DNA of 64,000 nucleotides, taken from positions 8,267 through 72,266 of the IMG/VR virus record IMGVR_UViG_3300046795_000082; one strand, 5' to 3'. Source of the DNA: a virus (Duplodnaviria; Caudoviricetes). The notes under the pieces are model-generated. The model searched no databases, had not been told where the DNA came from, and worked only from the letters and a program-made list of their open reading frames with translations. Positions within the stretch are counted from its first letter, which is position 1; the number at the start of each line of letters is the position of its first letter. Shown here piece after piece: positions 813-63,834 of the stretch. A program made the translations under genes and the position numbers.

Positions 813-2225
813 ATGACGACGACGATGACGACGGCGCCACTCAACATCTGGCTCACCGACCGCACCCGCGTCAAGACCGGCACCGCGCGCTGCGCCCGCG
901 CTCGCTTTCACGCCTGCCACTTCGGCCCGACCGGCTACGGCATCACGGCCCGACGCGACTCACTCCCGCTCGCCACAGGCATCTCCGTCCATCGCGGCCT
1001 GGAAGGCTTCACCCGTCACCTGGCCACGCGTGACCGTATCCCGACCAGCGCCGAGGCCCGCCTGGTCATCGCCGAGGTCGTCAAGGACTACGTCACGCGT
1101 GTAGAGGCGCGCGGCTTCCGCGGCATCCTAGGCAGCGCCGACACCGAAGAGACGATCGTCGAGCAGGCGACGCTCATCGAGGGCCTGCTCTGGGCGATCT
1201 ACACACGCTTCCTCCCCTGGCTCGACGCGCAGTATCAGGTCCTGGTCGCCGAGGAGGAGCGGCTGCACTTCCTCAGCTGCGCCTGCGGGGCGCCGCCGCT
1301 CGACACGGCCGAGCACATCCGGCGCGGTTGCTCGGGCCAGGCACTGATGCTCCGCACCGACCTCCTGGCCCGCCGCCGCAGTGGTGGCACGCTCGCCTAT
1401 TTCGAATGCAAAACAACTGGCTGGGATTCCGACAGCTGGGCTGAGCAGTGGGAGACCGACCCGCAGCTCGCGCTGGGGACGCTCGACGTCGAGGCGCTCT
1501 ACGGAGGCGAGGTAACTGAGCTGTACATCCTGGGCCTGCGGAAGGGCCGGCGGACGCGCAATCGCTACGAGCCCGACGAGCGCAAGCGGCAGCAGTCGGT
1601 CTTGTGCTACGGCTACTGCCGGCCGGCGAACCCGCCGCTGACCGCCGACGACTGGCTCCCCAGCTACGAATGGACGACCGACGACGGGGTGGTCAAGCGC
1701 AAGAGTAAGGCGCACCAGCGGCGCGGCATCTGGGAGCTGGCCGAGAGTGACTGGCCTGCCTACCGCGCCTACCACGGGCAGGACCCTTCGCTCACCCCGA
1801 GCGAGTTCTGGGTGCGGATGCTGCCCAAGTCAGTGCTCGACAAGGTCTGCTTCCTGGTCGGCCCGATGAATCGGCAGGACGAACAACTCCAGATGACGCT
1901 GCGCGGCATGGCCGGCGAGGAGACGCGCTGGCAGGACACGCTGTGGCAGCTCTACGAGGCGCAGTTGGATGGGCACGACTGGACCAGCCCGACCTTCCAG
2001 GCGCTGCTCGACCGCCTGGTGCCGTGCAGCTGGGCGTGCCGGCCGTTCGGCAAGGACCACGAGTGCGAGTTCGTCCCGATCTGCCACCGCCACCTGGGCT
2101 GGCAGGACCCGATTGGCAGTGGGCACTTCCAGCCCCGACTCCCACACCACGAGCCTGAGCTGCAGCAGGCGATAGCGCGAGGCCTCCTGCCCGAGGAAGC
2201 CGCGCTCGTCGACGAGGAGGACTGA
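813..2225 (+). CDS. PD-(D/E)XK exonuclease, Cas4/AddB-like
   Basis: RTDLL...FECKT catalytic pattern; N-terminal Cys plus C-terminal CSWAC...CEFVPIC Fe-S-like cluster; heads a recombination module. Confidence 0.8.
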   Translation: MTTTMTTAPLNIWLTDRTRVKTGTARCARARFHACHFGPTGYGITARRDSLPLATGISVHRGLEGFTRHLATRDRIPTSAEARLVIAEVVKDYVTRVEARGFRGILGSADTEETIVEQATLIEGLLWAIYTRFLPWLDAQYQVLVAEEERLHFLSCACGAPPLDTAEHIRRGCSGQALMLRTDLLARRRSGGTLAYFECKTTGWDSDSWAEQWETDPQLALGTLDVEALYGGEVTELYILGLRKGRRTRNRYEPDERKRQQSVLCYGYCRPANPPLTADDWLPSYEWTTDDGVVKRKSKAHQRRGIWELAESDWPAYRAYHGQDPSLTPSEFWVRMLPKSVLDKVCFLVGPMNRQDEQLQMTLRGMAGEETRWQDTLWQLYEAQLDGHDWTSPTFQALLDRLVPCSWACRPFGKDHECEFVPICHRHLGWQDPIGSGHFQPRLPHHEPELQQAIARGLLPEEAALVDEED

Positions 2226-2735
2226 ATGGGTAGCGTGGGCGGCTCTCGACACTACGGCGGCGGTGGGCTCGGACAGACAGGCGTGTGGGCGTGTCCGGCG
2301 TGCGGCGCCGAGAACCAGGGGCCGATCGACCAGGGCTGCGCGCTGTGCGGTGCTGGCAAGCCGGGCCGCCGCGTCAAGCCGTCGACACCGCCGCCTCCGC
2401 CACCCGCGCACGACGACGACCCGCGTGTGGAGCAGGGCGACGTCGCCGACTACTGGGCGCGCACCCATCCCGAGGCCTCGATCGCTCAGGCCTACCGCGC
2501 CGGCTATCTCGACGGCGTCCGCGAGGCGCTCGCCAAGACCCGCGCGGCAGAGGCCTCACCGCCGCTCCTCGTCGAGGACAAAGCGCGCCGCACGATCATC
2601 GCGGCGCTCGCGCTCTTTCGCGACCAGGTACTCGCGAGCAGCCCCGAGGAGGTCACCAGCGGGGAGTGGCTGAGCGCCGACGAAGCGGATGCGGTCATCG
2701 CGGAACTGACGGAACTGGAGACCACCCATGCCTGA
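2226..2735 (+). CDS. Hypothetical protein with N-terminal RanBP2-like Zn finger
   Basis: WACPACGAEN...CALCG; coupled to neighbours. Confidence 0.65.
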   Translation: MGSVGGSRHYGGGGLGQTGVWACPACGAENQGPIDQGCALCGAGKPGRRVKPSTPPPPPPAHDDDPRVEQGDVADYWARTHPEASIAQAYRAGYLDGVREALAKTRAAEASPPLLVEDKARRTIIAALALFRDQVLASSPEEVTSGEWLSADEADAVIAELTELETTHA

Positions 2736-2925
2736 TCGAATGCTGCAATTCTTCGAATACGCGCACCTGCCGGAGCCCCTGCAGGCGGCCAGTCGACGCT
2801 TCTACGAGCTGGCGCACGGGGTCGTGGACGACTTCCCGATGAACCCGGAACGCACGGTCTGCCTTCGCAAGCTCCTGGAGGCCAAGGACGCCGCCGTTCG
2901 CACCCTGCTCTACAAGGAGGCGTGA
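2728..2925 (+). CDS. Small helical phage protein, possible Acb2/Tad1-like hairpin
   Basis: LQFFEYAHLPEPLQ...ERTVCLRKLLEAKDAAVR, recalled as a widespread small phage family. Confidence 0.6.
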   Translation: MPDRMLQFFEYAHLPEPLQAASRRFYELAHGVVDDFPMNPERTVCLRKLLEAKDAAVRTLLYKEA

Positions 2926-4244
2926 TGCCTGACGCACGCCGTATCTTCACCGCCACCCTGATCCTGGGCGTCCCTGGCGCCGGCAAGACGTCACTATTAG
3001 CAACCTTCGCGCGCTACCTCTGGGAGACCTACACACGCGTGCTCCTGTTGTACAGCTGGGACGGCGGCGCGATCCCGACCGACCTGCAGAAGCTGATGCA
3101 GCAGGGCCTCATCCGGTTCTGGCGCTGTCGCACGCGCTCCGCTCCTGGCCTGGGCATCGAGACGCTCTATTTGGCCACTAAGGGCTATTGGCCGCGCCAC
3201 ATCGACCCTACGACTGGGGAGACCTCACCGGCCGTCGACCTCGTGCCGCCGGTCACGACCGAGTACCACGTCACCTGCCCCAAGGGCCATCCGCTGGCGA
3301 AGCTGCCGACGCGCGCGACGATCGCCCCGACCTACTGCGACGCCTGCAAGACGCTCATCGCGCTCAACGAGCTGACGGTGGCCGAGACCGTCACCCGCAC
3401 GGTTGGATTCGAGAAGGTCGGTGGCGTGGCGTTCGACGGCCTGACCTCGATGACCCAGGTGGTTATGGAGCATATGGACCATGCCCGCGGCCAGGGCCTG
3501 ATCGGCGGCGAGAAGCCGGCCTTCGGCGGCAACGTCATCTCCGGGTCCATCAAGCTGGGCGGCAACAACCGGGCGGACGTGGGGTTCGGCCAGAGTCGCG
3601 GGCAGCAGTTCGTGATGAACAGCCTCTCGATTCCCCACCTCGTCGAGGGCCCCGTCTTCACCGCGCTCTCGATGGAAGCGACCGACGAGGGCGGCCTGCC
3701 AATCGTCGGGGCGAAGCTCCCGGGGCGCGCGGCGACCGACGAAGCCAGCAGCTGGTTCGGCAACGCCTGGGAGATGGGGAAGACCATCGACGACGGTGGC
3801 GGGGAGCACTTCACCCTGTTCCTGCGCCCGTTCACCGACGCCCAGAACCGGCGGCACCTGCTCAAGACCTCCGCATCCCCGACGGGGCTGCCCGACCAGC
3901 TGACCGACCCGATCGGCGAACCCTGGAAGCAGGCGAACCTGGGGCTGGTCTACAGCCTGCTCGACCAGGACCTGGCCCGGGCGCTCGCCGAGGAAATTCC
4001 TGGCGCCCCGGGGATGGCTGCCACGCCGAAGGACTACGGCGGTGGCACGTTCCAGGTCTTCACCACGCCAGTGCCATCGCCTCGCCAGGAGGTGGAGCTG
4101 CCGCTGCCGTTCGCTCCACCTGTCGCCCCACCCCGAGCCGCCGCACCGGTGGCCACCGCGCGGAAGCGCCGCGCCGATGCGGCCCCGCCACCCCCCGGAA
4201 TGCGCCCCCCAGCGCGGGCCCCAGAAACGGAACCCGTCGCCTAA
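2925..4244 (+). CDS. AAA_24 / Sak4-like ATPase (recombination) with Zn-ribbon insert
   Basis: Walker A GVPGAGKT, Walker B VAFDGLT; CPKGH...CDAC insert; between nuclease and SSB-like gene. Confidence 0.75.
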   Translation: MPDARRIFTATLILGVPGAGKTSLLATFARYLWETYTRVLLLYSWDGGAIPTDLQKLMQQGLIRFWRCRTRSAPGLGIETLYLATKGYWPRHIDPTTGETSPAVDLVPPVTTEYHVTCPKGHPLAKLPTRATIAPTYCDACKTLIALNELTVAETVTRTVGFEKVGGVAFDGLTSMTQVVMEHMDHARGQGLIGGEKPAFGGNVISGSIKLGGNNRADVGFGQSRGQQFVMNSLSIPHLVEGPVFTALSMEATDEGGLPIVGAKLPGRAATDEASSWFGNAWEMGKTIDDGGGEHFTLFLRPFTDAQNRRHLLKTSASPTGLPDQLTDPIGEPWKQANLGLVYSLLDQDLARALAEEIPGAPGMAATPKDYGGGTFQVFTTPVPSPRQEVELPLPFAPPVAPPRAAAPVATARKRRADAAPPPPGMRPPARAPETEPVA

Positions 4245-4265
4245 CCAAGACAGGAGCACACGTGT

Positions 4266-63139: not shown

Positions 63140-63145
63140 TCCCAG

Positions 63146-63171
63146 GCCGGGCGGTCTCCACGACGCCCGGC
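63146..63171 (+). terminator. GC hairpin after stop codon (terminator or processing stem)
   Basis: GCCGGGCG-N10-CGCCCGGC. Confidence 0.4.
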
Positions 63172-63210
63172 TGGTTCCTCCACACACGTGCAGATGAGAG
63201 AGAGGCAACC

Positions 63211-63834
63211 ATGGCCACGATGAAGAAAGAGATCGCGGGACGGCTGGTCGACATCCACGTCAGCGAGAAGGACGGCACCTTCAGCTGGCGCAGTGCGGGC
63301 AGCCAGCACTACGTCAGCGAGGCGAGCCTGCCGGTGCTCGCCAAACGCGTGCAGAAGCTGCTGGCGATGAAGCGCATCTCGGTGAACGTCCCAGTGGGCA
63401 TCCTGCACGGCAACGCCACCCCGATCAACGTGCGGCTGCGGCGCTTCAGCGAGAAGGACCACAGCGAGATTCTGGTCAAGGCGATCGACGGCGGGCCGCA
63501 CGCGCCAATTCGGAAGTACTCCGACGTCTACCAGCTCTGGGACGACGCGTCGGTGGCCGAGTTCACACGGCTGAAGGCGGCGGCTCGCGAGGCCGACGAG
63601 GCGCTCGACGCGTTCAAGAAATCGCGGCAGCTGCTGGAGCCGAAGCGAGCCGCGAAAGGCATCGTCAGCGTCCAGACCGTCGACCGCGTGCTGGAGCAGG
63701 CGCTCGACGACAAGGAGGCGCTGCTGGCGCACAAGGCCGAGAAGGCCGCGCTGGACGAGGCCCGCACGCGTGTGGACGAGGCGGCCGACCGCGCCAAGGA
63801 ACTGGACTCCGAGCGCGACCTGGGAGACTTCTGA
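63211..63834 (+). CDS. Hypothetical early protein, coiled-coil C-terminus
   Basis: GA-repeat leader. Confidence 0.6.
   Translation: MATMKKEIAGRLVDIHVSEKDGTFSWRSAGSQHYVSEASLPVLAKRVQKLLAMKRISVNVPVGILHGNATPINVRLRRFSEKDHSEILVKAIDGGPHAPIRKYSDVYQLWDDASVAEFTRLKAAAREADEALDAFKKSRQLLEPKRAAKGIVSVQTVDRVLEQALDDKEALLAHKAEKAALDEARTRVDEAADRAKELDSERDLGDF

Follow-up and report, generated by a model that had tools for sequence, protein, structure and literature searches.

Dispersed words in phage, plasmid and bacterial genomes

To our knowledge, arrays of one short word dispersed over a genome are known in few cases only, namely the stoperators of Cluster A mycobacteriophages, the repeats of Cluster O mycobacteriophages and HIP1 of cyanobacteria, and a reader is known for the stoperators only. 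Phages normally avoid short palindromes because restriction enzymes cut them. Here we describe a dispersed palindrome, CACGCGTG, which occurs in 31 exact copies in the genome of a soil virus (Caudoviricetes; IMG/VR record IMGVR_UViG_3300046795_000082). The record is complete (CheckV 100%), 72,266 bp long and 67.7% G+C. The stretch analyzed, hereafter the window, comprises 64,000 nucleotides (record bases 8267–72266) and holds 29 of the copies; positions refer to the window unless stated otherwise. The phage under study is labeled G000, its complete relatives G001 to G004, a further phage contig L201, and the locus at the left end of the record L043.

HIP1 (GCGATCGC) resembles the present word in being an 8-bp G+C-rich palindrome with a 6-bp core of the restriction or methylase type. 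It is likewise about 10-fold over-represented, lies within genes in several frames, shapes codon and amino acid choice and has no known function. HIP1 differs in that it is spread throughout host chromosomes and is accompanied by cognate orphan methyltransferases, whereas CACGCGTG was found in two phages only, at about 1 per 2.3 kb, with even spacing and one genome region spared, and neither a phage DNA methyltransferase nor an enriched host genome was found. The stoperators of Cluster A (L5 gp71, Bxb1 gp69) also comprise about 30 dispersed copies of a short word, far from most promoters, in a temperate genome. However, they are asymmetric sites of 13 bp that follow the direction of transcription, lie mostly between genes and are bound by a known immunity repressor, whereas the present word is a perfect palindrome of 8–10 bp with 25 of 31 copies inside genes and no excess near gene starts. 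On IncP plasmids, the OB sites of KorB are 12 palindromic 13-bp sites on a replicon of about 60 kb, read by one dimeric ParB-family protein that exerts global control. The dispersal of a palindrome over the replicon is similar to what is seen here, but the KorB sites are mostly near promoters and their ParB-family reader is known; no ParB-like gene was noted in the phage, for which PF02195 was not searched.

The Cluster O mycobacteriophages (Corndog, 34 copies) carry 17-bp dyad-symmetric repeats, TGTTCGG-N3-CCGAACA, about a third of which are intragenic and which are mostly not at promoters (PMC4351075). Their function is unknown, and it has been predicted that a dimeric protein binds them in some process that is not transcription initiation; the same phages carry methyl- and glycosyltransferases that are thought to decorate the capsid (PMC4351075). 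Here too, more than 30 dyad-symmetric sites are dispersed over a genome that encodes methyl- and glycosyltransferases. The Cluster O repeats differ in their 7-bp arms, 3-bp spacer, sequence, conservation throughout the cluster and higher density at one genome end, and their phages are not evidently temperate. The present word has a different architecture, is shorter and is limited to a sub-lineage, being held in common with only one related phage examined. Thus, the CACGCGTG array differs from HIP1, the stoperators and the Cluster O repeats each in a defining feature.

Excess of the palindrome and its imprint on coding sequence

The 29 window copies compare with 3.9 ± 1.9 expected by dinucleotide shuffling (maximum 10 in 100 shuffles), and the 31 copies of the genome with 2.3–7.1 under Markov models of orders 0–5, which bears out the roughly 10-fold excess given in a preliminary description of this DNA. 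All 28 positions listed there are correct, the two copies it placed between genes (37748 and 56210) are non-coding, and one further copy had been missed. Relative to an order-3 model, no other 8-mer of the genome is as over-represented as CACGCGTG (z = 26.6). As with HIP1-type words, an 8-bp palindrome is in excess; of its 31 copies, 25 are coding, in two frames, and 6 lie outside coding sequence. When codons were shuffled such that each protein sequence and the codon usage of each gene were preserved, and the 6 non-coding copies stayed in place, 8.8 ± 1.4 copies were obtained in total (maximum 15 in 1000 shuffles), i.e., about 3 coding copies were expected and 25 were observed. The excess survives this shuffle and is seen at synonymous positions, in line with the selection on a dispersed DNA site that had been proposed. 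In the literature searched, CACGCGTG was met only in eukaryotic or primer contexts.

The half-words alone are not enriched. Of 36 ACGCGTG, 31 fall within the full palindrome and 5 outside, only 4 of 35 CACGCGT lie outside it, and ACGCGT outside the 8-mer is at the level of composition (21 against about 25). The flanks also show a preference: A at −1 or T at +1 is present at 23 of the 29 window sites, as the one-sided extension described earlier implied, and both are present at 6. With half-sites pooled, T follows the word in 31 of 62 cases against a background of 16%, and G is disfavored. A graded flank preference is likewise apparent from the codons, as GCA CGC GTG is used for none of 14 Ala-Arg-Val tripeptides, whereas ACA CGC GTG encodes 8 of 18 Thr-Arg-Val (TRV). 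The longer palindromes of 14 and 16 bp, and the identical 16-mer that abuts a Shine–Dalgarno sequence at 8563–8578 (+) and at 45731–45746 (−), were found as described. The exact dyad symmetry, the half-words that are not enriched and the graded flanks together point to a symmetric dimer reading double-stranded DNA.

The coding copies are read as xCA CGC GTG in 10 cases and as xxC ACG CGT Gxx in 15, never in the third frame, which confirms the two reading frames reported before. All of them encode (T/S/P)-Arg with rare codons (ACA is used 82 times and ACC 760 times; CGT 118 and CGC 799 times), and 23 encode Thr-Arg. Among the 18 TRV tripeptides of the phage, 15 are built with the rare ACA or CGT, and none is so encoded in three relatives, a difference at synonymous positions that agrees with the DNA-level selection proposed earlier. 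Furthermore, TRV is itself over-represented 2.6-fold (18 against 6.9 expected; 4, 8 and 6 in the three relatives), thus the protein sequences are bent to fit the word. A synonymous rewrite could yield CACGCGTG at 82 places, 25 of which carry it. Several of the other places are one C-to-T change short of the word, so the genome is not saturated with it.

At the orthologous places of relatives, the word is separated from the local sequence by 1–5 substitutions within conserved flanks, and no insertions were seen at well-aligned conserved sites. The changes that made the sites are purely synonymous at 1094 and 31359, and a variable residue was altered at 3034, 18203, 19658 and 34711. One to five substitutions with conserved flanks rule out the insertion of an element as well as sequencing error. 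A mobile element was rejected also because the flanks of the sites are unrelated to each other. It is as DNA that CACGCGTG is maintained, in opposition to codon preference and even where amino acids had to change.

That the word reflects no DNA-level feature, being a by-product of codons, dipeptides or composition or an artifact of assembly or sequencing, can hardly be entertained. An order-6 Markov model does expect 24 copies, only since its sub-words themselves consist of the motif. The codon shuffle and the rare-codon encodings contradict this account, the respect for reading frames and conserved residues excludes base-calling errors, and a second, diverged phage (L201) has the same excess. 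Two structural explanations were also rejected. Alternating purine-pyrimidine words such as CGCGCGTG are at the level of the relatives, unlike an excess of the Z-DNA type, and for an RNA hairpin or known RNA family there was no Rfam match in the window and the 8-mer is unable to self-fold.

Carriers, relatives and possible hosts

No close match was found among deposited phages, nor were closer relatives found in the phage, viral and metagenome collections searched. The family consists of soil viral contigs with portal identities of 81–89% and nucleotide identities of 73–78% where alignable. The complete relatives G001–G004 have 0, 2, 1 and 2 copies of CACGCGTG, and the word occurs 0–2 times, nearly always 0, in each of 28 viral and 24 metagenome loci. 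When the relatives were screened for other 8-mers, none had a comparable excess. The core ACGCGT is depleted in G001 (7 against 20.8 expected) and G002 (11 against 26.3), as though restriction acted on it.

The exception is L201, a 23-kb contig with the closest homolog of gene 58969–60267. It contains 6 CACGCGTG in 21 kb against 0.7–1.3 expected, and 24 ACGCGT against 10.8 ± 3.0, a number reached in none of 100 shuffles. In the conserved 762-amino acid (aa) gene, identity to the phage under study is 79% for L201 and 78% for G002, thus L201 is no closer by this measure. L201 does have accessory genes in common with this phage that G001–G003 or G001–G004 lack; those missing from all of G001–G004 are the three genes of the accessory module described below and L043:1217–1495. 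Five avoided words (CTCGAG, GAGCTC, TGCGCA, GTGCAC, GCATGC) are identical in the two, as is the non-avoidance of CACGTG. Among the alignable sites, 0 of 5 are at the same place, i.e., the density of the word is conserved between the two phages and its positions are not. Among the phages compared, the word is restricted to these two.

The avoided palindromes were counted in the window and genome, with observed/expected numbers of 0/31 for CTCGAG, 0/28 for GAGCTC, 1/21 for TGCGCA, 1/12 for GTGCAC and 0/10 for GCATGC. CTCGAG is missing from all relatives too, and the remaining avoided words vary between relatives, which suggests different host restriction repertoires.

Outside the family, 11 dispersed copies occur in the 61-kb phage G006, which is unrelated and whose enrichment is only mild, and an IMG/VR scan for loci with two copies yielded CRISPR repeats and iteron arrays for the most part. 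In unrelated phages, CACGCGTG and GACGCGTC-like partners form arrays phased at 11, 12, 21 or 22 bp (L049 7766–7989, L059 3737–3807, L094 2211–2323, L053 13235–13314, and L110, L117 and L088). Those in L049, L059, L088, L110 and L117 sit inside or before a common open reading frame of about 270 aa without a Pfam family. These phased arrays are probably iterons or operator arrays. In CRISPR-like arrays on viral contigs L054, L057, L061, L064, L106, L107 and L121, CACGCGTG centers the repeat palindrome.

The capsid protein matches just two cellular contigs, both in metagenome-assembled genomes (MAGs) of Gemmatimonadota (63% and 45% identity), which contain one CACGCGTG per 60–100 kb. The extended word ACACGCGTGT occurs 0–8 times per genome in 201 Gemmatimonadota genomes and 6 times in the 72-kb phage, a comparison for which the host assignment is weak. 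The preliminary description had set a phage system against a signature of the whole host chromosome; equal enrichment was not seen in the 2 MAGs and 201 genomes sampled, but as the host assignment is weak, the word may still be a host signature. The portal gene was found in 0 of 401 Gemmatimonadota genomes, and a search for attP, in which integrase-adjacent DNA was compared with the same number of genomes, gave chance matches only, none in a tRNA gene. The Gemmatimonadota samples used for the ACACGCGTGT count and the attP search include the unpublished genome G199 (2 copies, a chance-level match), which supports no claim made here.

These data bear on a footprint of the HIP1 kind, the chief rival of the docking-site reading given below, which we regard as possible but doubtful. 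Here a host enzyme, or an unrecognized phage enzyme, would methylate ACGCGT, methylation-linked biased repair or selection would lead to ACGCGT and CACGCGTG, and a temperate phage would gain the signature in its host. The word is of the restriction type with an MluI-type core, and the depletion of ACGCGT in G001 and G002 indicates that the hexamer is "seen" in the phage–host system. The five avoided sites shared with L201 point to a common host type, the protein sequences are bent as with HIP1, and the phage has an integrase. Moreover, the excess in L201 is mostly at the hexamer, with departures from the 8-mer at its outer letters, where departures from HIP1 are reportedly located. However, no match to the DNA methyltransferase families PF00145, PF01555 and PF02086 was found in six frames of the phage, and no DNA methyltransferase turned up in Pfam and PHROG scans of its proteins. 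The candidate-host MAGs and the 201 Gemmatimonadota genomes show no excess, and the deamination-type neighbors TACGCGTG, CATGCGTG and CACGTGTG are not depleted, although their counts are tiny. ACGCGT outside the 8-mer is at the level of composition in this phage. Such a footprint also does not predict the even spacing and the sparing of the early region described below.

Coverage of the chromosome and candidate readers

The gaps between the 30 copies outside the early region are more even than under random placement (coefficient of variation 0.65 compared with 0.95, P = 0.01), with a mean of 1988 nt and a maximum of 5 kb. The early region contains 1 copy in 14,604 nt where about 6 were expected (binomial P = 0.008). 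DNA common to relatives carries 14 of the 31 copies against 12 expected, i.e., conserved and unique DNA are occupied alike. A gene-start signal was rejected, as 4 copies are near starts where 2.1 were expected (P = 0.17). A marker of mosaic junctions was rejected too: the median distance of 289 nt compared with 581 nt (P = 0.02) is a weak signal, and the scarcity of sites in the early region confounds it. The density kept despite turnover of positions, the even spacing and the sparing of the early region suggest a function that needs coverage of the chromosome.

Selection of the "more is better" kind, even coverage and position turnover would also fit a Chi-like or anti-nuclease signal, in which the word, on either strand, stops a nuclease of the host (RecBCD/AddAB-type or other) and more copies give more protection of linear DNA. 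The half-word resembles the Lactococcus Chi, GCGCGTG. Nevertheless, we consider this improbable: known Chi sites are asymmetric and act alone, whereas stand-alone 7-mers are rare here. If the word were a host Chi, the host should carry it at high frequency, which is not so in the genomes sampled, and the early region that spans the record ends has almost none. Still less probable is a site for a core replication or packaging enzyme, e.g., a primase start at Okazaki-fragment distance or a signal for the terminase or polymerase. The even 2-kb mean spacing resembles Okazaki-fragment lengths, but the replication and packaging proteins are 63–88% identical to those of word-free relatives, and a specificity change limited to the sub-lineage would be required.

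We tentatively favor the reading that CACGCGTG, with its preference for A before it and T after it, forms a genome-wide array under selection, whose sites would serve for the docking of a putative dimeric factor that binds double-stranded DNA sequence-specifically and is peculiar to the sub-lineage or to its host. Coverage of the middle and late chromosome would then matter rather than control of single genes, and the early region would be kept clear since it has to act before the factor or without it. The most likely use would be chromosome-wide silencing, organization or protection, like that of Cluster A stoperators or KorB sites. The phased 11- and 21-bp arrays of the same word in other phages were counted in favor of this reading.

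Several points weigh against it. An 8-bp palindrome with a 6-bp restriction-type core resembles a methylase or restriction site more than a classical repressor operator, the mostly intragenic placement is unlike that of stoperators, and the hexamer accounts for most of the excess in L201. The depletion in the early region is not significant per synonymous opportunity (1/11 against 24/71, P = 0.16), and several statistical tests were run, hence the P values of 0.01 are modest. No reader of CACGCGTG was found among the phage proteins examined. An accessory module (AAA ATPase, DUF3150-like protein and DUF2201_N metallopeptidase with a VWA domain), the one gene set seen to accompany the word, is present in both word-carrying phages and absent from the four complete relatives. 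This correlation amounts to 2 genomes against 4 and is confounded by shared descent and probably by a shared host; besides, 79 other phages with DUF2201 homologs show no CACGCGTG excess (16 against 21.6 expected). By its distribution, therefore, the module is a candidate reader only.

A more specific version of the docking-site reading is that the phage marks its own chromosome, early region aside, with a private palindrome at even spacing, and that the mark is read by a factor that the phage encodes and that has not been described before, possibly this module. The array would then serve self-recognition or chromosome management, the word would be changeable between sub-lineages, and the system would be of the same kind as the Cluster O repeats. 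We regard this version as rather unlikely.

The XRE proteins (424, 20277) and the RHH protein (21546), which the preliminary description had named as possible binders, are poor candidates. Their DNA-reading helices or strand are conserved, nearly unchanged, in relatives without the word, and the reader is probably not among these conserved regulators. More likely, they serve GCATATGC operators, which are common to this phage, G002 and L019. GCATATGC is a second recurrent palindrome of the phage family that is found also in an unrelated phage, with sites in G002 (8), L019 and L254 (14 in 14 kb), as well as upstream of 62609 in the window and of 2178 in L043. It is placed between −35 and −10 boxes or directly before ribosome-binding sites, and from this position it is probably a repressor operator.

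Other candidates were rejected as well. Palindromes near other DUF2201 genes (L254, L222, L226) are leader elements before ribosome-binding sites and not intragenic, and homologs of the genes L043:3066–3410 and L043:3407–4582, considered as co-travelers, occur in L281 and L283 without the word. For SprT-like PF10263, the phage gave sub-threshold matches only (18.5 and 14.9 bits; cut-off 25.6). After the conserved 762-aa gene lies a gene for a small HELTH (HExxH) protein, 53203–53763 (−), with no homolog in G001–G003 and no match in L201. Among 5.8 billion proteins it has four homolog clusters only, in low-G+C phages, and its six homolog loci show no dispersed palindrome, thus its link to the word was rejected.

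The early region carries its own oriented CCACACACGTG box, which differs from the palindrome by one mismatch. The box precedes gene starts by 20–60 nt, and a (GA)n ribosome-binding tract comes after it. This box occurs 3 times in L201 and is absent from relatives. The leaders ahead of L043:148 and of window 60790, each about 40 nt long, are identical. In the predicted promoter before the gene at genome position 6900, CACGCGTG and CACGTG lie just upstream of the −35 box TTGACA, and L201 has CACGTGTG at the corresponding place; this placement in both phages was likewise counted in favor of the docking-site reading.

Gene calls from a codon-usage model gave about 100 genes covering 89% of the genome. 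The early region runs rightward from window 56900 across the record ends to about genome base 6800. It is followed by a rightward arm of replication and glycan genes, including a UDG-PolA fusion, glycosyl- and methyltransferases and a tyrosine integrase, which by its predicted product indicates a temperate life style. The leftward structural arm spans 22052–55946, with the portal gene at 43381–45525. The integrase is enclosed in an island of glycosyltransferase and methyltransferase genes (5343–16414) that is mostly absent from relatives and includes a gene like those for nucleoside diphosphate-hexose C-methyltransferases (11883–13139). Between the divergent late and early arms, 950 nt (55947–56899) hold no convincing gene, and neither an Rfam match nor a promoter or terminator of consensus type was seen there. 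The sole leftward gene in the early arm, L043 5672–6616 (−), encodes a P-loop (AAA_25-like) protein that ends in a winged helix at the C terminus, is not an integrase and is 56–63% conserved in relatives. The left end of the record (L043 1–2500) is paralogous to window 60700–62700: the leaders are identical and the small genes are alike. A terminal duplication that has since diverged may account for this, or the paralogy may be why the assembly ends there. Coordinates are collected in the table.

Table. Copies of CACGCGTG in the window and other features of the phage genome
Feature	Position	Strand	Context
CACGCGTG	1025–1032		gene 813–2225 (+), read GCC ACG CGT GAC
CACGCGTG	1094–1101		gene 813–2225 (+); VTRV kept in relatives with other codons
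CACGCGTG	3034–3041		gene 2925–4244 (+); Thr here, Ser in G001
CACGCGTG	6999–7006		middle of 14-bp palindrome 6996–7009
CACGCGTG	8565–8572		adjoins AGGAGG; start at 8586, 13 nt downstream
CACGCGTG	13564–13571		gene 13253–13714 (+)
CACGCGTG	15540–15547		gene 15371–16414 (+)
CACGCGTG	17844–17851		UDG-PolA gene 16912–19908
CACGCGTG	18203–18210		UDG-PolA gene; arose via amino acid changes at variable position
CACGCGTG	19658–19665		PolA gene; middle of 16-bp palindrome 19654–19669
CACGCGTG	21640–21647		within RHH-like gene 21546–21809
CACGCGTG	23692–23699		gene 22052–24040 (−)
CACGCGTG	24068–24075		gene 24044–26407 (−), 3' end; next start 27 nt on
CACGCGTG	28330–28337		gene 28175–28705 (−)
CACGCGTG	29888–29895		gene 29456–30052 (−)
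CACGCGTG	31359–31366		1350-aa gene (−); NTRV in relatives with CGC or CGG, not CGT
CACGCGTG	34711–34718		flanks conserved in 4 relatives; core varies: V here, E/G/D/P there
CACGCGTG	37748–37755		non-coding; 2 nt ahead of start of gene 37455–37745 (−)
CACGCGTG	38900–38907		gene 38781–39092 (−)
CACGCGTG	42877–42884		copy absent from the preliminary description
CACGCGTG	43180–43187		non-coding; downstream of portal gene
CACGCGTG	45737–45744		adjoins AGGAGG on − strand; 10 nt ahead of start at 45726
CACGCGTG	46755–46762		small gene 46663–46800 (−)
CACGCGTG	50067–50074		gene 49605–50390 (−)
CACGCGTG	51855–51862		conserved 762-aa gene (−); L201 without copy at same place
CACGCGTG	54879–54886		gene 54394–55221 (−); not common to L201
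CACGCGTG	55443–55450		between genes 54394–55221 and 55590–55946
CACGCGTG	56210–56217		950-nt non-coding divergent region; CA-rich context like early leader boxes
CACGCGTG	63765–63772		sole copy of 14.6-kb early region
Early region, window part	56218–64000	+	continues over record ends to genome base 6821; 14,604 nt in total
CACACGTG leader box	56831–56838	+	62 nt before start at 56900; one mismatch from palindrome
Other leader boxes	58026, 60751, 63183, 4257; before window, L043 109, 717, 7787
Accessory module (candidate reader)	56900–60267	+	AAA ATPase 56900–57925; DUF3150-like 58053–58979; DUF2201_N metallopeptidase + VWA 58969–60267
Tyrosine integrase	14005–15108	+	no homolog in complete relatives G001–G003

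The accumulation of a palindrome to near the limit that the proteins allow points to a positive, chromosome-wide reading of the phage DNA. The presence of the word in 2 carriers, set against 4 complete non-carriers of which two deplete the core, narrows the search for the reader to a few accessory genes or a single factor of the host. Should a phage protein read the word, the array would be a new kind of genome tag. If the reader is instead methylation or repair by the host, a HIP-like process would exist outside cyanobacteria and could be traced through a phage.

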